From: a candidate division WOR-3 bacterium
GTDB taxonomy: Bacteria > Hydrothermota > Hydrothermia > LBFQ01 > DSFT01
Assembly: GCA_025060695.1 (NCBI GenBank)
Contig: JANXBH010000009.1
Span: 584-64,583, forward strand
DNA length: 64,000 nt
Direction of reading: 5' to 3'
Part shown: piece after piece, positions 36,908-52,077 of the stretch
Layout of the letters: each line of letters starts with the position of its first letter
Position numbering within the stretch: the stretch's first letter is position 1
The notes under the pieces: generated by a model
Seen by the model: only the letters and a program-made list of their open reading frames with translations
What the model was told of the DNA's origin: nothing
Databases searched by the model: none
Translations under genes and position numbers: made by a program

Positions 36908-37822
36908 TTACTTAAATTTAAATACAATTTTTTCTAACTTTATTCCTCCTCCTTCATAATAACCAGGCTTTAGAACAAGGTTTCCTTCTTCAACAGGTAG
37001 TCTAGACATTATAAACTGCCTTAACATTCTCATTCTTTCCTCCATTACAGCCATACCTTCTGGGCTTGGATAATAAGTTATTTCAATAGGGGAAGTCCAA
37101 GGATAGTTTTCCTTCAATATATTTAAAGCTTCAATTATTCTATCTTCTTGACCCTCTCTAAATACCGCAAAACCTCTCTCAAATACGTCTCCAATATCTA
37201 CTATAGTGTATTTATATCCGCCCTCTTCATAGTAATAGCCCTTTACTGAAAATGGCTTACTTAGTTCCCTTCTTGTTTCTCTCCCATCAGAAACTGTAAT
37301 TCTATAGTGGAATAATTGTCCAGGTTCTGTTACCGCTTTTCCTTTAGTATCTTTTCCATCCCAATAAACGAATTCTGGTAACTTACCCTTACCTGAATAC
37401 TCTTTTAGCTTATTACCCCAAGAGTCATAGATTTCTATCTTCCATTCTTTTACGTTTTTATACTTTTTGTTGAATTCACCGACATTAAGAGGAATATCCT
37501 TATAGACATTTATAGGGAAAATAGGCTGTCTTATAAATAAATTTTCAAGTTTGATTACTTTCCTAATTTCATCTTCTATAGTTTTTGGAAGTCTGAGTTC
37601 TAATTTCCTTTCCTTTCTATATAAAAGTGAGTCAATTGGCTCAAATGGCTCAAGAGAAACGTCAGTTATTGGCTTTAAAGCATCATCTATGGAATACTCT
37701 GCTTTCTCAACTACTTCTTCCTCTTGTTCTGTACCCGCACCCTGACCCGTTGGAGCTTCCTGACCTTGAGACATAAGTATTCCTATAAATCCAAATAATA
37801 TTAAAATCTTAAAGATTCTCAT
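36908..37822 (-). CDS. Exported protein with FlgD-like Ig domain and degenerate OmpA-like C-terminus
   Basis: Signal peptide; WKIEIYD..G..LK.YSG...VYWDGKD..G; C-terminal DVFERGFAVF...ERMRMLRQFI. Confidence 0.6.
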   Translation of the reverse strand: MRIFKILILFGFIGILMSQGQEAPTGQGAGTEQEEEVVEKAEYSIDDALKPITDVSLEPFEPIDSLLYRKERKLELRLPKTIEDEIRKVIKLENLFIRQPIFPINVYKDIPLNVGEFNKKYKNVKEWKIEIYDSWGNKLKEYSGKGKLPEFVYWDGKDTKGKAVTEPGQLFHYRITVSDGRETRRELSKPFSVKGYYYEEGGYKYTIVDIGDVFERGFAVFREGQEDRIIEALNILKENYPWTSPIEITYYPSPEGMAVMEERMRMLRQFIMSRLPVEEGNLVLKPGYYEGGGIKLEKIVFKFK

Positions 37823-37834
37823 AATTATAACCTC

Positions 37835-38959
37835 TTACGTTAAAACAAACCTTACAGTTAATCTTCCTTTTTCCTCTGCTTTACCGGGTTTTGGAGCAAA
37901 CTTCCATTGACTTAGTGCCTGAATTGCAGAATTATCCAAGTCGGGATATCCAGATGACCTTATTACCTGTATGTTAAATACACTTCCATTAGCATCTACT
38001 GAAAACGAAAGCACAACAGTTCCTTCCCAACCCTGCTGTTTTGCCCTCTTTGGATATACAGGTTTTACTCTATTTAGAATTTGTCTATTCGCTACTTCTC
38101 CTTCTAACTGCATACCAGCAGGTGAAGAAACACTAGCTACTTCTTGGACTGCAGGAGCAGTTACTGTAGGCTTACTCACCTCAATCTTAACTTCACTCGC
38201 AAGACTTGGGTTTTGGGCTAAGCTAACCGCTTTTCCGCCTCCTCCTATTCCACCTCCCACGTCAGTTCCAAGACCAAGACCTCCACTTGCTCCACCTTCA
38301 ATACCTCCACCGAGTGATATAGCAGGAACTGCTTCCTGTGATAATATATCAGATATACTTGCTCCCCTACCTGTCACACCTACCACTACGTCAGCCACAC
38401 CAACATCAGCCAAGTTAGCAGAACTTATATCTATTTCGGCTTGTAAATTAGCTATACCTTCTATATTCATTTTATTTAAATCAACCTTAACGTCAAGTTG
38501 CTCAGTTTGAATAGAAGGTGAACTAAGTAGTCTTGGATCTATGTTTACATTAATATCAAGTTTTGGACCTCCTCCAAGACCAGGGGTAGGCTTTGGTAAT
38601 TCTGTAGATTGCGTTTGAAGCTTAGGACTTAAATCTATTTTCTTTTGATCACCTGGCTTATCATCTTTCTTTGCTGTTTCTTGTTGTTTCTTCGGTTCCT
38701 CTTTCTTCTGGACTTCTTTCTTCATTTGTTCAACTTTTCTTTGGAGTTTAGGATTGATAAATTTACTCTTCATCGCTCTTTCTTCAAGTAGTTGTATTTC
38801 TCTTAATCTAGCTTCTTCAATCGCCCTAGCTATTTGACTCCTTAAAGTCCAAAGGATGCCTGCATGTATCAAGATAGCAAATAGAAGGAATATTATGAAC
38901 CTTTTCTTTGAACCCTTGTCTTCTTGCCACTCTGGCAAAACCACTTGTCTCTCTCTCAT
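37835..38959 (-). CDS. TonB-family energy transducer
   Basis: TM helix with His (AILIHAG), long Lys/Pro/Gly linker, TonB_C PVYPKRAKQQGWEGTVVL...SSG...LD..A...WKF. Confidence 0.93.
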   Translation of the reverse strand: MRERQVVLPEWQEDKGSKKRFIIFLLFAILIHAGILWTLRSQIARAIEEARLREIQLLEERAMKSKFINPKLQRKVEQMKKEVQKKEEPKKQQETAKKDDKPGDQKKIDLSPKLQTQSTELPKPTPGLGGGPKLDINVNIDPRLLSSPSIQTEQLDVKVDLNKMNIEGIANLQAEIDISSANLADVGVADVVVGVTGRGASISDILSQEAVPAISLGGGIEGGASGGLGLGTDVGGGIGGGGKAVSLAQNPSLASEVKIEVSKPTVTAPAVQEVASVSSPAGMQLEGEVANRQILNRVKPVYPKRAKQQGWEGTVVLSFSVDANGSVFNIQVIRSSGYPDLDNSAIQALSQWKFAPKPGKAEEKGRLTVRFVLT

Positions 38960-38969
38960 ATTCTACCTC

Positions 38970-39401
38970 CTATGTTTTCTTAACAACTGCCAACGTTATT
39001 CTCTTACTACCACCTCTTTTTACTGCGTCAATAGTATTTAAAACTGTTTGCCAGTCAACTGATTTATCTGCTCTTATTACAACTAATTGTTCTCCAAGTT
39101 CCGCATCTGGATTTTTTGCTTTATATTCTTCCTGCGCTGATTTTATAAGTTGAACTAATTCTTGCAAACTCACCTGTTTGTCTTTTAAATATACAGTTTT
39201 ATCTTTCTTTATAGAGACTGCCAAGCTTTGCTCTAAATCAGCCTCTATAACTCTTGCTTTTGGAACTTCAACCTCTACACTAGTACTCTGAAACATCTGC
39301 TTTGACGCAATAATCAACGTTATGAAAATGAATGCAAATATATTAGCAAGGTTAAATACCGCTTGTGCTACTTCTCCTTCTCCACCTTTTGCCTTGGCCA
39401 T
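38970..39401 (-). CDS. ExbD/TolR family protein lacking the conserved TM Asp
   Basis: VVIRADKSVDWQTVLNTIDAVK; TM FNLANIFAFIF. Confidence 0.88.
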   Translation of the reverse strand: MAKAKGGEGEVAQAVFNLANIFAFIFITLIIASKQMFQSTSVEVEVPKARVIEADLEQSLAVSIKKDKTVYLKDKQVSLQELVQLIKSAQEEYKAKNPDAELGEQLVVIRADKSVDWQTVLNTIDAVKRGGSKRITLAVVKKT

Positions 39402-39404
39402 AAT

Positions 39405-39839
39405 TTAACCTCCCCTCTTCATTATCAAAACATCACCCGCTCCTTTACTTTTTAGAAAATCGATCATTTGAACAACATTTTCATAAACAACTTCAGGATC
39501 AGCAGACAGTAAGGCATTTTTTTCTATACTTCTAGCTAATAACTTTGGTACAAGGTCTTCAAGTTGTTCCTGAGTAACAGGTTTTTTATTTAACTCAATT
39601 ATTCCGTCTGCTCTCATATGTATACTAACCTTTACGTCAGTTTTAACTTGTTTTTGTTGTATAGGTCTATTTAACTTAGCAGCCATTGACCTACTTATAA
39701 AAATTCCAGATTCTACAATAAATGGAATAGTTAGAACGAAAACCTTAACCAAAGAACCCATTACATCTGTCAAAGAAATGAGGCCCGCTGCTGGGACCTC
39801 TGCTTCAACACTACCGTGTTCTAACCTTCTTTTTGGCAT
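39405..39839 (-). CDS. ExbD/TolR family protein
   Basis: SLTDVM TM motif; LSADPEVVYENVVQMID. Confidence 0.88.
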   Translation of the reverse strand: MPKRRLEHGSVEAEVPAAGLISLTDVMGSLVKVFVLTIPFIVESGIFISRSMAAKLNRPIQQKQVKTDVKVSIHMRADGIIELNKKPVTQEQLEDLVPKLLARSIEKNALLSADPEVVYENVVQMIDFLKSKGAGDVLIMKRGG

Positions 39840-39844
39840 TTAAA

Positions 39845-40501
39845 TCACCCCCTCGCAGTCTGATACTCTTTCAAAATAACTAAAAATTCTTGAACAGATG
39901 CTTCTATTCTTGAAATAAGAACCTCTACACTTCTATTGAAAATATTAAAGAAAATTATTGCCAAAACTGCTATTATTAGACCTGTCCAAGTAGCAACAAG
40001 CGACGTAGAAATACCTTCTCCTACAACTTCAGGACCACCTGTTCCAGTTACCGCTATCTCGTGGAATGCGTGAATAAGACCATCAACTGTTCCAAATAGA
40101 CCAAGAAGAGGAGCCAAAACGCTTATAACACTAATTGCAGTTAATCTCTGGGTTAATCTATCTTTCTCGTTGAGTATTCTTGCATACATTAACTTTTCCA
40201 CTTCCTCAGGAGGTAGTTCTGCGTTTTGAAGACCTACTCTTAGAACATTTCTTACAGGAGTATCTGCATCTCCTAATCTCTTCATTGCACCTTCAATATC
40301 ACCTTCCCTTAGATGAGTAAGAGTTTCCTTTACTATCCTATTGGCATCAGCCTCCTTCCTTCTGTTATAAGCTATAAATCTCTCTATAATAAGAGCTATG
40401 AGAAGTATGGAAACAACAAGCAATATGAACATCGGGAAACTTGAGAAGTAGGTTTTGGGTCCTACCACACCATCCCAAACTGCATATAGTTTAAATATCA
40501 T
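39845..40501 (-). CDS. MotA/TolQ/ExbB proton channel family protein
   Basis: APLLGLFGTV.G, GIS.SLVAT..GL. Confidence 0.93.
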   Translation of the reverse strand: MIFKLYAVWDGVVGPKTYFSSFPMFILLVVSILLIALIIERFIAYNRRKEADANRIVKETLTHLREGDIEGAMKRLGDADTPVRNVLRVGLQNAELPPEEVEKLMYARILNEKDRLTQRLTAISVISVLAPLLGLFGTVDGLIHAFHEIAVTGTGGPEVVGEGISTSLVATWTGLIIAVLAIIFFNIFNRSVEVLISRIEASVQEFLVILKEYQTARG

Positions 40502-40518: not shown

Positions 40519-43116
40519 TTATTTAGGTAAGATTTCTAAAATTTGATCTATTTGGCTAACCATTTGAGTATTTCCTTCCTGTTCATATAAGGTTCTCGCC
40601 TGTTGTAAATAATTTATCGCTTCTCTTGAATTTCCTAATTGCGAATAAGCCCATCCTATGTTAAAGAGTATTTTGGATTTGTTCTTAGTTTGAGGAAACT
40701 TCTGTAATGCTTCCTGACCAATTTGTATAGCAGAACCAAAATCGTTTGTAGCCAAATATGAAGTCATCAAATAGTTATATACATCCTCTATATTAGTCCC
40801 ATCCGGGAAAAAGTCCTTATATTTCTTCAAAGCTTGTATAGCTTGCTGATATTTCTTGTGCTTTAAATACAATGCTCCAGCAGTATATAATGCTTCTGGT
40901 GTTTTCGGACTTTTTGGAAACTCATTTGCAACTCTAAAGAATAAATCTGCTGCTTTTTCCTCATCACCAGCTTGATAACTCTGTGCTGCTTGATAATATA
41001 AAGCTTCTGCTGCTTTATCGCTTGCAGGATATTTCTGTGCAAGTTGCTCTGCATATTTAGGATCTTGAGTAGATGCTGCAAGATAAACATCCTCAACTCT
41101 CCTCCTTACATCTGGAGCAAGTTCGTGATCAGGATATAAATATAGGAATTTTTCATAAACCTGTATAGCCTTGTCAAATTCCCTGTTAATAGTATAGTTT
41201 CTACCTAATGCATACATTGCTCTTGGAGTTGTTGGATGCCCTGGAAAGTGCTCAACTTCCCACTCTAATAGAGCAATTGCTTTATCAACTTGCCCCGCCT
41301 TTAAATAAATATCCGCAGCTCTAAAAGCAGCAAGTGCAGCCCTTGGGTGATCTGGATATTCGTTTACCACTCTCTCCCAAAGTTTAACTGCATCACCATA
41401 AGATTTTAAAGCTAATGCAGCAAATCCTTGGAAATAAAGGGCTTCACCACTTTCATATCTTGGTGTATACAAAGCAGAGATTGCAAAGTCCTTAAATGCA
41501 TCCATATATTCACCTTTATTAAATTTCGCAACACCTTTGCCTAAGAATAATGCAATTATAAGTGAAGTATCACCTCTTGCTCTAACAGCACCATCTATGG
41601 AATTAAAGTGTGACAATGCATCATCGTATCTCTTTTGATGATAAGCAATCCATCCAAGTCCAAGTCTTGAAAGTATTACTAAATCTCTTGTTAATTGTTT
41701 TTTGATATTTATATTATATCTTAATTCTGCCTCAGGATAAGCTCCTGCATAGTAGTGTGCTTCTGCTAAACCGTAAACGTACCATCCTTTCCATAGGTCA
41801 AAAGAAGTATCTTGGACTTCTGGTCTTAAGGTATCTTGCATTTCAGCATAATAAATATTACCTTTTAATAATGCTTCTTTGAATTTTCTATCACGAACAA
41901 GTGATAGCATTTCCATAGCCATGGAAGGTTTTCTAAGAAATGTCTTTTTATAGTTTTCTATTACTAGCTCAAAGTTTTTTGCAGCAGCTGTATATTTACC
42001 TAAAGAATAATCAATAGCACCCCTTCCATACTCGCCTATACCTGCTTCTTCAGGTGGGAACTTCATCTGTCTTAACTGATCTGCCATGGTATAGGATTTT
42101 AGAGTATCTCCCACATAAAAGTTGGCTTGCATTAGCCTAATAAATGATACATTGTATATATCTTGGTCATTTGCCTTTGCTAAGGCAGCTTCATAATACT
42201 TTACAGCTTCTTTATATTTTGCTTTCGCGTCATCTAATTTTCCTTCGGCTTTATACTGACGACCCCATTCCTTCTCAGCATTACCAGCAAAGTATGCTGC
42301 TAAGTTTGCAAATTCAAAATTTTGCTTTTTAGATATCAGAGTTAGCTTTTCTATTGCAGATTGATATTCCCTCATTCTATATAGAGATATTCCCCAATAG
42401 TACTGAACCCAATCTGAAAATAATGAACCATGATATTTTTCTATAAAACTCTTTGCCAATTCAGCAGTACCTTTATAGTCTGCATATATGAAATTTGCTT
42501 CTACCATAGCATATGCAATAAATGGTTCTCTCGGTGTATTTTTATATCTTTCTAATAGGACTTTATAAACACCAATTGCTTCTAATGGTCTTTGTAAAAG
42601 CGCCAAACTTCTTGCATAATAAAATTGAGCTTCAGGAATATCTTTGATATCTCTTAATTTTTCAATTGCTTCATCGTATCTTCCCTCTCTATAGTCTATA
42701 ATACCTAATAGCATCTTAGTTCTATTAGAGTTTTTATAATAAGGATATTTCTGAAGCTCCTGAATTACCTGCTTTGCTTCCTTTGGATCTCTAAAATTAG
42801 TAAAGAATACAGCAATAGCATATGCAACTTCACCTTTTAAATATGGAAGCTTCTTCTCAACATATCCATCTTTATATAATGCCATAAATCCATCGTAAGC
42901 ATTTTTATAATTACCCTTATTGAAATTACACTCAGATATTCTATATAAAAATTCCTTTTCATATCCGAATTTCCTTGCATCAGAAAGAAGTCTCTTGTAT
43001 ATTCTTTCAGCTCTATCGTATTTACCAGCAAAGAAGAGAGCCTCAGCTTCCCTATACGACTTATAAAATTCTTCATATGTTAAGCTTATAAGCACATTTA
43101 AGAACATATTCATCAT
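40519..43116 (-). CDS. Large periplasmic TPR protein (BamD/CpoB-like repeats)
   Basis: TPR repeats throughout; YPDHP..A.A.F/Y type turns. Confidence 0.88.
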   Translation of the reverse strand: MMNMFLNVLISLTYEEFYKSYREAEALFFAGKYDRAERIYKRLLSDARKFGYEKEFLYRISECNFNKGNYKNAYDGFMALYKDGYVEKKLPYLKGEVAYAIAVFFTNFRDPKEAKQVIQELQKYPYYKNSNRTKMLLGIIDYREGRYDEAIEKLRDIKDIPEAQFYYARSLALLQRPLEAIGVYKVLLERYKNTPREPFIAYAMVEANFIYADYKGTAELAKSFIEKYHGSLFSDWVQYYWGISLYRMREYQSAIEKLTLISKKQNFEFANLAAYFAGNAEKEWGRQYKAEGKLDDAKAKYKEAVKYYEAALAKANDQDIYNVSFIRLMQANFYVGDTLKSYTMADQLRQMKFPPEEAGIGEYGRGAIDYSLGKYTAAAKNFELVIENYKKTFLRKPSMAMEMLSLVRDRKFKEALLKGNIYYAEMQDTLRPEVQDTSFDLWKGWYVYGLAEAHYYAGAYPEAELRYNINIKKQLTRDLVILSRLGLGWIAYHQKRYDDALSHFNSIDGAVRARGDTSLIIALFLGKGVAKFNKGEYMDAFKDFAISALYTPRYESGEALYFQGFAALALKSYGDAVKLWERVVNEYPDHPRAALAAFRAADIYLKAGQVDKAIALLEWEVEHFPGHPTTPRAMYALGRNYTINREFDKAIQVYEKFLYLYPDHELAPDVRRRVEDVYLAASTQDPKYAEQLAQKYPASDKAAEALYYQAAQSYQAGDEEKAADLFFRVANEFPKSPKTPEALYTAGALYLKHKKYQQAIQALKKYKDFFPDGTNIEDVYNYLMTSYLATNDFGSAIQIGQEALQKFPQTKNKSKILFNIGWAYSQLGNSREAINYLQQARTLYEQEGNTQMVSQIDQILEILPK

Positions 43117-44222
43117 ATTCCCCTAACCCCCTTTTTAACATTTACTAAGCCTCCTCTCCTTTTATATATTTTACCATCTTCAGTCCTAACTATAAAATCA
43201 TAGTAATAAACACCTTTCCCCACATATCTACCCTCTTCATCTACTATGTGCCAATATATACACTCACTTGGGGGATTATCATCACCCCAATAAGTTTTAT
43301 AAACTTTACCCCATCTATTAGTTATATTAAATGTCCATCTAGTAATTTTTGAAGGTAGAATGTATCTAAAGCAAATTTTCGTTACGCTTGCTTCAGCTTC
43401 TGGTATAACCTCTACGATTTTAGGAGAGGACTCTGCCCATACCGTATGACCAAAAAACTTCACTGTCAAACCAAAAGTATAGACTTTATCTTTACTTTGT
43501 GCTTGAATATCATTAACACTTACATCACCAAGTATATCAACAGTATTATAAACATATAAGATGCCTAAACCTGCTGGAATTTTATGACCCAAGTCAGGAT
43601 TATATAAATAACCAAATCTTAAAAACAACGGATAAAGTGGAGATAACTCCATTCCTATAGACGCTAAATCCTGACTTTTTACATTTCTTGCCATAGTAGA
43701 GTTTAAATCCATAGTAAATGTCAAACTTCTTCCTATTACAGGTAATGGATAGTTTGCAACTTGAATACCAAATCTCAACTTTAACGCATTAGGTGTATCC
43801 AAATTTTCTGCAGTGAAACCAAACATAAAGTAATCACTAAAATAGAAACTAAACCCTCCATAAACATGAGGTCTTGGTTTTAGACTATCCTTTAACATAG
43901 TATCCTGAATATACAAATATTGAATACCCAAACCTATATTAAACCCACTAAAGTTCCTTGCTAATACTCCATAAATCATAGCGTTCCTTGTAGTATCCAA
44001 AACTCCACCTAGTCCAAGAGCTACAAATCTATTAGGAATAGCTATACCTCCACCATAATAGCCACTTTGAGAGTAAAAACCACCAATCATTACCCTCGTA
44101 GCCATAGAAGCTGCAGAAGGATTAAAGAATATACCATCTACTCTTTCTGCATAAGCATTATACGCATTAGCCATAGATACAGGATGCGGACCAAACATTA
44201 AACTATAAATTAAAATAAGCAT
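43113..44222 (-). CDS. PorV/FadL-like outer-membrane barrel fused to an FlgD-like Ig domain
   Basis: N-terminal GPHPVSMANAY.A.....GIFFNPSA plug motif; amphipathic beta strands (LFLRFGY); C-terminal WTFNI.N..G...K..W...IYW...D..G..V..GVYYY. Confidence 0.7.
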   Translation of the reverse strand: MLILIYSLMFGPHPVSMANAYNAYAERVDGIFFNPSAASMATRVMIGGFYSQSGYYGGGIAIPNRFVALGLGGVLDTTRNAMIYGVLARNFSGFNIGLGIQYLYIQDTMLKDSLKPRPHVYGGFSFYFSDYFMFGFTAENLDTPNALKLRFGIQVANYPLPVIGRSLTFTMDLNSTMARNVKSQDLASIGMELSPLYPLFLRFGYLYNPDLGHKIPAGLGILYVYNTVDILGDVSVNDIQAQSKDKVYTFGLTVKFFGHTVWAESSPKIVEVIPEAEASVTKICFRYILPSKITRWTFNITNRWGKVYKTYWGDDNPPSECIYWHIVDEEGRYVGKGVYYYDFIVRTEDGKIYKRRGGLVNVKKGVRGI

Positions 44223-49033: not shown

Positions 49034-50695
49034 TCATTCTTTATTTAGAAGTTTCTTTAAAATTTCGTAATGATTTCTAATTTCGCTATCATTCTGGTCT
49101 TTTTCATAAGCGGTTTTGATATACTTAAAGGCTTCTTCATATTCTCCCTTTTTAAATAGTGCCCATCCGAATGAATCTAATATTTTAGGATTGGTAGGAT
49201 CTAATTGTATTGCCTTTTTTAATAATTCAAAACCTTTTTCAATATCTAAATTCTCATTTACAAGCAAATAGCCATAGTTATTGTATATTTTTGAAGCAAA
49301 ATTTAGAATTTTCTTATCCACTGTTGTATCTATTATTGCTTGTATTGATTTTATACTCATTTCATAATACTTAATAGCAGTTTGAATTTTCCCCTCCTTA
49401 AAATACTCCTGTGCAAGTTGAAAATTCGCTTCATAGTCATCTGGTCGTTTTTGAACATATTCAATTAGTATCTCTTTATATAGAACATAATTTCCGCGTC
49501 TTTTATAAAAGTCCGCTAAATTTTTGTACCTTGTAGGGTTATTCTTATCAGCTCTTAATGCATTTTTAAAGTATTTTTCAGCAAGCTTTAGTTTATTCTG
49601 ATATTCAAAACTGTATGCAAGAATTGAATATGCGGAAGAATTCATCTTATTCAAGGTTAAGGCTATTTCCTTTAATTGCTCAAATTCTTTTTTATCTAAA
49701 AGTATATACATTTTCAAGATTTTATACTCATCACCGTAGTCTAAGACTTTATCTATCAAATCTAATGCCTTATCTTTCAAACCCAAGTTGTAATATGCTT
49801 CAGCTAAGAAAAAAACTATATGGGGTGAAAAAACTATTTCGTTAGCTATTGTGAAACTCTCTATTGCTTTTAAATATAAACTATCTAATTTTACTTTCTT
49901 TGCAAGATTATAATATGCATAGCCCATATACTCATAGAAAAAGCTCTCATCGCTATAGTGCTCTAGCACGGACTTACACACTTCAATAATGTCTTTGTAC
50001 TTCTCATATTTGTATAACATCTTTACTAAATACTCATAAAAATTTTTTCTTTCAGGTGTTGCATAAATATAAGCTCTCATCCCATAGTATATTGCGCTAT
50101 CTTTTATGCCGTTTTGATTATACATAGCAGTAAGTGCAAACAGAATTCTAAAGTGCTCGCTTTGGTATTTTAAAAATGTGTCAAAATTACCAGATAACTC
50201 TGCTTTACTTATTATACTATCTGATAGCCTCAAATAATATAGCGCTTTTGCATAGTCATGACTACTTTTAGAATGGACAAACTTGCTATATAATCCAATA
50301 GCATAATTTACCAAATTTTCTATTGAACTATCTATCTCGTAAACCTTTTTATAAATTACCAATGCATCATCAATTTTAGATAGTTTTTCTAAAAAGATAG
50401 CCTGATATTTTAAAAAGTTTATATTTTTAGGCATTAACAAGTATGCTTTCCTTGACCAATTATACGCACTTTTATAATCTCTCTGCGTTGAATATATCCT
50501 TATAATTAAATCATATGCACTATCATCGTCCTTTCTATATTTTATGTAATTTTTGAGAGTTTTTAAAGCTTTCTTATATTGCTCTTTTTTTATATAATAA
50601 TAAGCAAGCTGTTTTAAGGCTGAAATATTACCTTCTTTAAAGTCTTTTTTGTACTTAATTTCTAATGTATCGCTAAGAAGAATTAAAAATATCAC
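49034..50695 (-). CDS. TPR repeat protein
   Basis: NNYGYLL...[13 protein letters not shown] and multiple TPRs. Confidence 0.88.
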
Positions 50696-52077
50696 TCCAT
50701 CGGTTTATAAAACTTATCTAAGTACTCTTTTGATATTCTTACCAATTCGCTTCTTGGGAGTATAGACAGGAGTTTCCAACCAATCTCAAATGTTTGCTCT
50801 ATACTTCTTCCTTCCCTTCTTTGATTTATCATTAACTTCTCAAATTCATCAGCAAATCTTATATACTTTCTATCTATTTCAGAAAGTGCGTCCTCTCCTA
50901 CAATAGCCGCAAGCCTTCTATTGTCCTTGCCTCTTGCATAAGCAGAAAATATCTGGTCGGACCACTGCCTGTGGTATCTTTCAGTCTTACCTTCACCAAT
51001 ACCATTATTCATCAATCTGGATAGTGAAGGTAAAATATCTATTGGTGGAAATACACCAATTCTATGCAATTCCCTTGAGAGAACTATTTGACCTTCTGTG
51101 ATATAACCTGTTAAATCTGGTATAGGATGGGTAATATCATCATCGGGCATAGTAAGTATTGGTATTTGTGTTACTGAACCCTTCTTGTTTTTAATTCTTC
51201 CTGCTCTTTCATAAATATTAGCTAAATCCGTATACATATAACCTGGATAGCCTCTTCTTCCGGGAACTTCTTCTCTTGCAGAAGATATCTCTCTTAATGC
51301 TTCGCAGTAGTTAGTAATATCAGTTAAAATTACAAGAACATGGTAGTCTAATTCAAATGCAAAGTATTCAGCTACCGTTAGTGCAAATCTCGGCGTTAGT
51401 ATTCTTTCAATAGTTGGATCATCAGCAAGATTAATAAATGCAATTAGTCTATTACTTGCTCCCATTTCTTCAAATTCTTGCTTAAAAAATGCATACTCCC
51501 TTTGAGTTATACCAATTGCACCAAATACTACCAAAAATTGTTCTCCCTCTCCCCTTACAGTTGCATATCTCATTATCATTGCAGCAATTTCATTTGCAGG
51601 CAATCCTGAACCTGAAAATATTGGCAATTTTTGACCCCTAACAAGTGTATTAAACCCATCTATCGCGGATATACCTGTTTGTATAAAGTCAGATGGCTTT
51701 TCTCTTGCAACAGGATTTATCGGAGAACCAACAATTGGTATTCTTTTTTCTGGAATTACAGGACCAAGTCCATCAATAGGTTCACCTCTACCATTGAATA
51801 TTCTACCTATCATATTTCTACTTACACCAAATCTTATAACGTCCTCAACAAGTCTTACTTTACAAGTCTTTACATCAAGTCCTAATGTTCCCTCAAGCAC
51901 CTGAATAACCGCAAAATCCTCAGTAATTTCTAAAACTTGACCACTCCTAACTATTCCTGTTTCAGTTTCTATCTGAACTAACGCTCCATAAGAAAGTTCC
52001 TTAGCATTTCTTACTACAAGTAGAGGTCCTGATATATAATCTACTGACGTATATTCCTTAATTGAAAGGTCAGTCAT
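50692..52077 (-). CDS. ntpB: V/A-type ATP synthase subunit B
   Basis: [50 protein letters not shown]. Confidence 0.95.

Follow-up and report, generated by a model that had tools for sequence, protein, structure and literature searches.

Can an ion-driven motor of the ExbB–ExbD kind run on an axle with a single membrane aspartate, in a pentamer that has lost its usual glutamate? The question is raised by three adjacent minus-strand genes at positions 38970–40501 of a 64,000-nucleotide stretch of contig JANXBH010000009.1 (the whole of which we call the window), from a hot-spring bacterium of candidate division WOR-3 whose 1.50 Mb genome is 94.9% complete. The first gene encodes an ExbB/TolQ-like pentamer subunit of 218 amino acids (39845–40501, here ExbB), the second a 144-amino-acid axle subunit which bears the membrane Asp (39405–39839, ExbD1) and the third a 143-amino-acid axle paralogue which lacks it (38970–39401, ExbD2). 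In our reading, to which we give a probability of about 0.55, these genes provide a Tol-Pal-like module with its ion-driven motor in the inner membrane, one with a single-Asp heteromeric axle and a shifted mouth carboxylate. An earlier note on this DNA had proposed an asymmetric heterodimeric plug with a relocated carboxylate, and perhaps a different ion.

Motor proteins and their key residues

All three open reading frames matched their expected families, ExbB with 103.5 bits against PF01618 (cut-off 22.9), ExbD1 and ExbD2 with 49.6 and 57.8 bits against PF02472 (cut-off 25.4), and an AlphaFold model of ExbB (predicted local distance difference test, pLDDT, 86.7) was matched by Foldseek to solved ExbB and TolQ chains with template modelling scores of 0.66–0.73 (E about 3e-6). 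At the equivalog level of NCBIfam every score fell short: tolQ gave 84.4 bits against 221, tolR 31 and 43.6 against 127.3, exbB 54.8 and 62.7 against cut-offs of 206 and 135, and ExbD 24–33 against 123–216. The closest names at this level are tolQ and tolR, and TolQ is also the top PDB match of ExbB. Within the genus the window's three proteins share 87–97% identity.

The residues named in the earlier note (D140 and T166 in ExbB, D25 and K32 in ExbD1, N20 in ExbD2) were all where it had placed them, their codons being read and aligned to named E. coli positions. Aligned by phmmer without gaps to E. coli ExbB (5sv0), residue n of the window protein equals ExbB n+10, which equates D140 (GAT, 40082–40084, minus strand as for all codons here) with W150, E162 (GAA, 40016–40018) with P172, T166 (ACG, 40004–40006) with E176, and T138 and T171 with T148 and T181. 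Alignment to TolQ (8odt) equates D140 with W147, T166 with E173 and H144 with His151; H144 and E162 are features beyond the list of the earlier note, and H147 is a further key residue of the protein. The pore threonines T138 and T171 are invariant in a 28-sequence ExbB alignment. The glutamate of the third transmembrane helix (TM3; ExbB E176/TolQ E173) is thus absent from the window ExbB, which has T166 in its place. The membrane Asp (ExbD D25/TolR D23) is present in ExbD1, where D25 (GAT, 39765–39767) aligns to D25 of ExbD (7ajq), and absent from ExbD2, where residue n equals ExbD n+5 and N20 (AAT, 39342–39344) reaches D25 through a 3-residue ungapped extension, a placement with which a MAFFT alignment with canonical ExbDs agrees. 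Neither chance nor sequencing error can explain these states, since further genomes of the genus, and metagenomes, show them as well.

D25 and E43 are invariant among 19 aligned ExbD1 sequences. E43 (39711–39713) lies at the periplasmic end of the membrane helix in the motif PF.VE.G, and is replaced by Q in three loci outside that alignment, those of the family f3 discussed below. Both D25 and D140 remain GAT although the loci of the genus have dropped to 29–36% GC, which argues that they are under selection.

An axle pair with one aspartate

The pairing of an Asp-bearing with an Asp-less ExbD extends far beyond the window. Among 30 loci (L003–L032) from 41 related genomes, which fall into families that we number f1, f2 and so on (f1 being the window's genus and its sister genus), ExbD1 was found in 27, the contigs ending too early in the other three, and carries the Asp in 24 of the 27, the three f3 loci having N or S instead. 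In the 24 genome loci where ExbD2 was found it is never acidic at this column (N in 4, G in 20), so that wherever both proteins were found the pair is Asp-bearing plus Asp-less (24/24); in the sister genus it is D25 with S20. Metagenomes added 55 loci, which may overlap among themselves and with the genomes, and in 37 of the 38 where both ExbDs were readable the pair was again Asp with non-acid (N 10, S 3, G 18, C 5, A 1). In nine of these 37 loci the neighbouring ExbB has the canonical TM3 Glu, as it does at L137, where alone among the 38 the pair is Asp/Asp. The one-Asp pairing is therefore old and broad, and includes relatives with a canonical ExbB; this part of the earlier note, the asymmetry of the axle pair, is borne out.

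The same note had treated N20 as an Asp-to-Asn change, an interpretation that does not survive the wider comparison, in which the whole ExbD2 line is without Asp (G in most, S or A in the sister genus, C in some). In 57 database proteins column 20 is occupied by N within the genus and by S or A among those at 58–62% identity, and in a wider set the ExbD2 orthologue group (E at most 1e-24) holds N, S, A, G or C, with most of the weaker next matches carrying the canonical Asp. ExbD2 is thus a paralogue line without the membrane Asp in the relatives examined, bar a role swap in f3, with the residue at this position free to vary; N20 is a genus-only state and not the knockout of a former Asp. A path from G through S to N was considered for this column and ruled out, the Ser codon of the sister genus being TCG.

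The swap concerns f3 (L030–L032, from genomes G019, G036 and G025), where the first ExbD has N or S, and ExbB has E162 with no acid at columns 140, 144 or 166. The second ExbD has an Asp in L030, the only locus read, so that the f3 pair again carries exactly one Asp.

Structure modelling of ExbD1 with ExbD2 scored 0.48, where the best of three controls scored 0.00, with runs sharing at least 40% of contacts and a partner pLDDT of at least 64. Of 157 solved complexes 116 came up to the mark used, as did 2 of 215 mismatched pairs, and passes at 0.60 or under came from only 18 of the 157 solved complexes, plus both passing mismatches. Since ExbD and TolR homodimers are solved, the pass may also reflect likeness, and the modelling weakly favours an ExbD1–ExbD2 heterodimer.

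Acidic residues at changing columns of ExbB

Loss of the TM3 Glu in ExbB extends across the clade. Over the 30 genome loci, f9 and f6 are canonical, with V/I at column 140, K/N at 144, S/G at 162 and E at 166. In f8 the four columns hold T, D/E, H/R and I; in f2 and f5 they hold D, D, K and T/V; in f1 D, H, E and T/S; and in f3 V, Q, E and V/I. Each lineage therefore holds one acid among columns 166, 144 and 162 (E162 in the window), with D140 an additional acid in f1, f2 and f5 (19 of the 30 loci) and H144 of the window replacing the D144 of its sister families.

We extended the comparison to 243 relatives from two database searches, of which 210 could be scored and 33 were outside the motif patterns. 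Numbered as in E. coli ExbB, an acid equivalent to position 176 was present in 143 of the 210; 40 had an acid at the 154-equivalent column only, 11 at 150 and 154, five at 150 and 172, two at 172 only and one at 154 and 172, and eight were acidic at none of the four columns. The 150-equivalent acid (the D140 column) occurred in 16 of the 210, all within this clade. That column otherwise holds mostly L, T, V, I or S, with W in only two of the relatives, so the motif GTVWG, which the earlier note had taken as the norm, is a rarity. An acid at the 154-equivalent column was present in 55 relatives, 52 of them without the TM3 Glu; because it is found mainly where the TM3 Glu is missing, we suggest that an acid in the second helix (TM2) shares a role with the mouth Glu.

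For TolQ, PMC12583513 describes the following: a single-file water chain runs between TM2 and TM3 of one subunit, from E173 at the periplasmic entrance through the T145/T178 ring to TolR D23, and E173A is lethal. TolQ E173 corresponds to column 166 of the window ExbB. E162 lies one helical turn before that column, on the same stripe and one turn higher, and judged from its place in the helix is the likelier stand-in for the mouth Glu, a candidate mouth carboxylate in f1. D140 is a different matter. In E. coli TolQ5R2A the membrane helix of TolA makes contacts that include Phe143, Trp147 and His151 of the neighbouring TolQ subunit (bioRxiv 10.1101/2024.11.27.625625), and lipids fill the grooves between ExbB subunits (PMC12215075). 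As D140 is equivalent to TolQ Trp147, which touches the TolA anchor helix outside the pentamer, it is probably on the side of TM2 that faces away from the pore; helical periodicity would agree, D140 being two residues, about 200 degrees, from the pore-facing T138. It would then probably sit in the anchor-helix or lipid groove and not be a pore ligand. The relocated carboxylate of the earlier note is in this sense half right: loss of the TM3 Glu does accompany acids elsewhere in ExbB, and the residue singled out for the channel, D140, is probably outside it, an outcome that the note itself had named as refuting its idea. No paper discussing ExbB E176 was found, and looking for E176, W150, E173 and W147 within PMC12965293, PMC11658791, PMC5903867, PMC12215075 and PMC9389320 gave no match.

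A lysine near the axle aspartate

K32 of ExbD1 (AAG, 39744–39746) is present in all four genomes of the genus and both genomes of the sister genus, and thus only in f1; elsewhere the column is V, I or L. It accompanies the ExbB changes D144-to-H and K162-to-E, a joint change that counts as one evolutionary event. Coming seven residues after D25, it would lie two turns above it on the same helical face, and possible pairings, judged from position, are within the helix with D25 or with an ExbB acid. In E. coli TolR the stretch corresponding to the K32 region holds a helix-helix leucine motif (PMC12583513). Aligned across orthologues, the residues that the earlier note had grouped together have different depths: D25 and the Asp-less ExbD2 are broadly kept, D140 occurs in three families, K32 is limited to one family of two genera, and T166 is exchanged for any non-acid residue (T, S, A, V or I).

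The motor that we propose would be a proton-driven ExbB5-ExbD1-ExbD2 complex whose axle has one protonatable site, not two; in it ExbD2 would serve as a passive partner helix and the mouth carboxylate would simply have changed its position. D140 would face outward on TM2, in the groove of the anchor helix or of lipid, and K32 would be a family-level addition which tunes D25 or pairs with ExbB acids.

A conserved seven-gene module

The motor genes lie within a tight minus-strand operon of seven genes, with intergenic gaps of −4 to 17 nucleotides. Upstream of ExbB are p369, the first gene of the module (43113–44222), and a gene for an 865-amino-acid TPR protein with CpoB/YbgF-type repeats (40519–43116), which matched TIGR02795 (tol_pal_ybgF) in five stretches with 155.3 bits (cut-off 90.1), and many TPR families of Pfam. 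Downstream of ExbD2 are a 374-amino-acid TonB/TolA-like protein (37835–38959) with an N-terminal membrane helix, a long linker and a TonB_C domain (PF03544, 79.9 bits; TIGR01352, 78.2 bits), and the Pal-like p304 (36908–37822), with a disordered N-terminus, an FlgD-Ig-like domain and an OmpA-like domain of the peptidoglycan-binding fold. The order p369–TPR–ExbB–ExbD1–ExbD2–TonB-like–p304 is conserved in nine of ten genome-contig loci, ExbD2 starts 3 nucleotides past ExbD1 in every locus, and a relative of the TPR protein lies upstream of ExbB in all 30. Nine further loci (L033–L041) probably duplicate species of L003–L032 and were excluded from the genome counts; among them the C-terminal part of p369 upstream of the TPR gene is retained in L033–L039, p304 in L033–L040, and the TonB-like gene downstream of ExbD2 in all nine. 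The module is thus a conserved, Tol-Pal-like, trans-envelope one which occurs in Candidatus Hydrothermia / WOR-3 bacteria.

The fold of p304 was assigned by Foldseek, as profile and Pfam searches left it undecided: its AlphaFold model (pLDDT 78–92 across residues 111–304) matched domains of the OmpA-like, MotB-C and FlgD types with E values from 4e-5 to 7e-3 and target template modelling scores of 0.45–0.68, Atlas leads being further evidence, the best profile matches among PDB sequences were OmpA-family chains at E values of only 0.12 and 0.24, and Pfam was unhelpful. p369 looks like a PorV/PorQ-like protein, probably of the outer membrane, by its Atlas leads alone (lead ‘PorV/PorQ family’, score 0.95); NCBIfam matches to PorV/PorU were weak and below cut-off, and a Pfam search of p369 gave no match. 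An FlgD-Ig-like domain is common to p369 (residues about 250–364, at the C-terminus) and p304 (residues 122–185). Atlas also lists similar FlgD-Ig plus OmpA proteins in Elusimicrobiota and Spirochaetota, and with these look-alikes the module may extend beyond WOR-3. The membrane helix of the TonB-like protein (residues about 21–40) has a His without the Ser four residues earlier (A...H, not the S...H of the SHLS motif); the f5, f8 and f3 relatives have S...H, and those of f2 and the sister genus have no His.

A second set of Ton-type genes (L050, G000:C5:17848-21213), ordered ExbB-ExbD-ExbD-TonB, adjoins a Plug-domain receptor gene on contig C5, which is why we read the window set as a Tol-Pal-like module and not as a receptor-linked Ton system. 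The C5 ExbB keeps the TM3 Glu. Both of its ExbDs are without Asp in all four genomes of the genus (S and N in the window's genome, N and N in three congeners; seven N in all, each encoded by AAT, and one S), so that among the four ExbD paralogues of the genome the window ExbD1 alone bears the Asp. Both C5 ExbDs have it in 13 genomes from other genera, as does the first paralogue in the sister genus. These ExbDs diverge fast, sharing 48–60% identity within the genus against 80–84% for the C5 ExbB. Base composition also sets the genus apart: its loci (L003–L006, L050, L062–L064) have 29–36% GC against 41–59% in relatives, with 51–52% in the sister genus and about 30% in the window. The first 2 kb of the window are at 42% GC, and two CRISPR direct-repeat matches (Rfam RF01315) lie at 1953–1982 and 2261–2290 of the window.

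Comparison with known systems

E. coli Tol-Pal is one close likeness, TolQ being the best NCBIfam and PDB match and the pore threonines being the same, and the operon likewise combines the motor with a TonB/TolA-like link, a CpoB-type TPR protein and an OmpA-fold Pal-like protein. It differs in having two distinct TolR-like genes, one of them Asp-less, no equivalent of E173, an acid at the Trp147 position, and equivalog scores far below cut-off; TolB_N (PF04052) was not found in the 94.9%-complete genome. With E. coli Ton (ExbB-ExbD-TonB) the motor shares fold and family, and a TonB_C-domain protein encoded alongside. In contrast to Ton, it has no adjacent TonB-dependent receptor (Plug-domain genes are elsewhere, one beside the C5 system), E176 is replaced and ExbD2 has no D25.

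One TolQ-like protein with two different TolR-like proteins, and TPR and TonB_C-type partners, are also found in AglR-AglQ-AglS of Myxococcus xanthus, for which an AglQ/AglS heterodimer inside AglR5 has been predicted (PMC11761067). The AgmX/PglI tail model gave 31.5 bits on the TonB-like protein, below its cut-off of 40. A review gives both AglQ and AglS a conserved Asp (PMC9389320), unlike the window, where only one TolR-like partner has it; nor is there evidence of gliding genes in the window's organism. Database relatives whose ExbB reads GMIEIF / GISVAL (their sources name some of them Hydrogenophaga, Limnohabitans or Burkholderiales) also lack the TM3 Glu and have a TM2 acid at the 154-equivalent position; 41 of the 210 scored sequences combine these two states with no 150-equivalent acid, which is the column-144 state of the sister families. 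They differ from the window in that none is acidic at the D140 position. In the type IX secretion motor (GldL-GldM / PorL-PorM) a basic residue of the axle is paired with an acid of the pentamer, the GldLM axle being a homodimer. This would resemble one possible reading of K32, as a likeness of working and not of demonstrated sequence relationship.

Alternative explanations

Several points weigh against the motor as we propose it. The placement of D140, E162 and K32 derives from sequence alignment, helical periodicity and E. coli structures, and should be read as provisional. The title of a 2013 E. coli study by Baker and Postle (PMC3697263) places ExbB membrane residues outside a proton pathway. 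The link between losing the TM3 Glu and gaining a TM2 acid is strong in raw counts and involves few independent events: in eight independent pairs on supported branches the second trait changed the same way in 3.5, the opposite way in 0.6 and not at all in 4.0 (sign-test median p 0.375), on a FastTree tree built with the trait columns included. As eight of the 210 relatives are acid-free at all four columns, a mouth carboxylate is not universal. We searched the TonB-like membrane helix for a residue tracking D140 and none was found. Lastly, the heterodimer passed weakly, and having one Asp-bearing paralogue would also fit a homodimeric ExbD1 axle with an accessory ExbD2.

This last arrangement, in which ExbD1 forms the usual two-Asp homodimer in ExbB5 and ExbD2 stands outside the axle, possibly as a regulator, as a plug for spare pentamers or as an adaptor in the periplasm to the TonB-like or Pal-like proteins, is unlikely in our judgement and has the weakness of the modelling pass on its side, together with the conserved periplasmic features of ExbD2 (an insert relative to ExbD1 and invariant E53, E57, R110 and D112) and the second ExbB-ExbD-ExbD system, whose two Asp-bearing ExbDs in 13 genomes outside the genus mean that paired ExbDs need not imply one-Asp axles. 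However, ExbD2 retains an ExbD-type N-terminal membrane helix and follows ExbD1 at the same short distance everywhere, and the Asp on the other pair member in f3 is a simple exchange within a heterodimer, whereas two paralogues would otherwise have had to swap jobs. A somewhat unlikely alternative for ExbB is that D140 and column 144 play no part in conducting ions and that the apparent rewiring is a partner-interface change on the outer TM2 face, which would dock the anchor helix of the TonB/TolA-like protein or lipid head groups. It would account for both D140 and H144 falling on TolA-helix contacts, Trp147 and His151 of TolQ, and for the lipid-filled grooves (PMC12215075) and the roughly 200 degrees that would separate D140 from T138, yet the His of the TonB-like helix does not track D140 (present in the window's own genus of f1 and in f5, f8 and f3, absent in f2 and the sister genus), nor does any other residue of it, and the 52 of 55 sequences with a 154-equivalent acid and no TM3 Glu suggest a role shared with the mouth Glu.

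That the relocated carboxylate and the Asn form a sodium site, the earlier note having suggested that the ion might be Na+, is most improbable. The organisms are thermophile-associated metagenome-assembled genomes, and the only V/A-type ATPase c subunit in the genome (L082 1381–1692; G000:C11) reads ...AQS... and ...PET..., a Q...PET pattern that may be of the Na+ type, a weak sign; a V/A-type catalytic subunit lies in the window itself at 50692–52077. Against this, neither Rnf/Nqr nor OAD-beta was found in the 94.9%-complete genome. N20 varies (S, A, G or C in other relatives), D140 probably lies away from the pore, and T138, T171 and D25 are the same set as in proton motors, the pore threonines being identical in H+ and Na+ motors. 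Also very unlikely is that the motor is losing its function by drift under relaxed selection in an AT-shifted genus with a small genome. The fall in GC against all relatives, the AAT codon behind every Asn at an Asp column, and the fast-evolving second Ton system with no Asp in either ExbD would suit such decay, but the window's three proteins are highly conserved within the genus, D25 and D140 are kept as GAT, and D140, the TM3 Glu loss and the Asp-less ExbD2 are all older than the genus and are seen in GC-rich relatives too.

What a one-aspartate motor would mean

The kind of motor found here is known, and its probable one-Asp variant is new; no description of an Asp-less ExbD partner was found in open-access and bioRxiv text, supplements not being covered. 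A stronger version of our reading, which we hold doubtful, would make ExbB5-ExbD1-ExbD2 obligate, with one ion-binding Asp per axle, gated in this family by K32 and by the acid rings D140/E162. The ExbD1 motor might then be the only working energiser for TonB-dependent receptors, as ExbD1 alone of the four ExbD paralogues in the genome has the Asp. If this were true, the motor would have half the sites of every described 5:2 motor, and either rotation could proceed from one site or each ion would drive a step twice as large.

In current models of Ton, Tol and flagellar-stator motors, two axle aspartates alternate in ion binding. A lineage whose axle partner never had the Asp would be a natural single-site version of such a motor, and would make the need for both sites, and the number of ions per turn, testable. 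The columns between which the mouth carboxylate moves (166, 144 and 162) would likewise map the positions that are able to serve that role.

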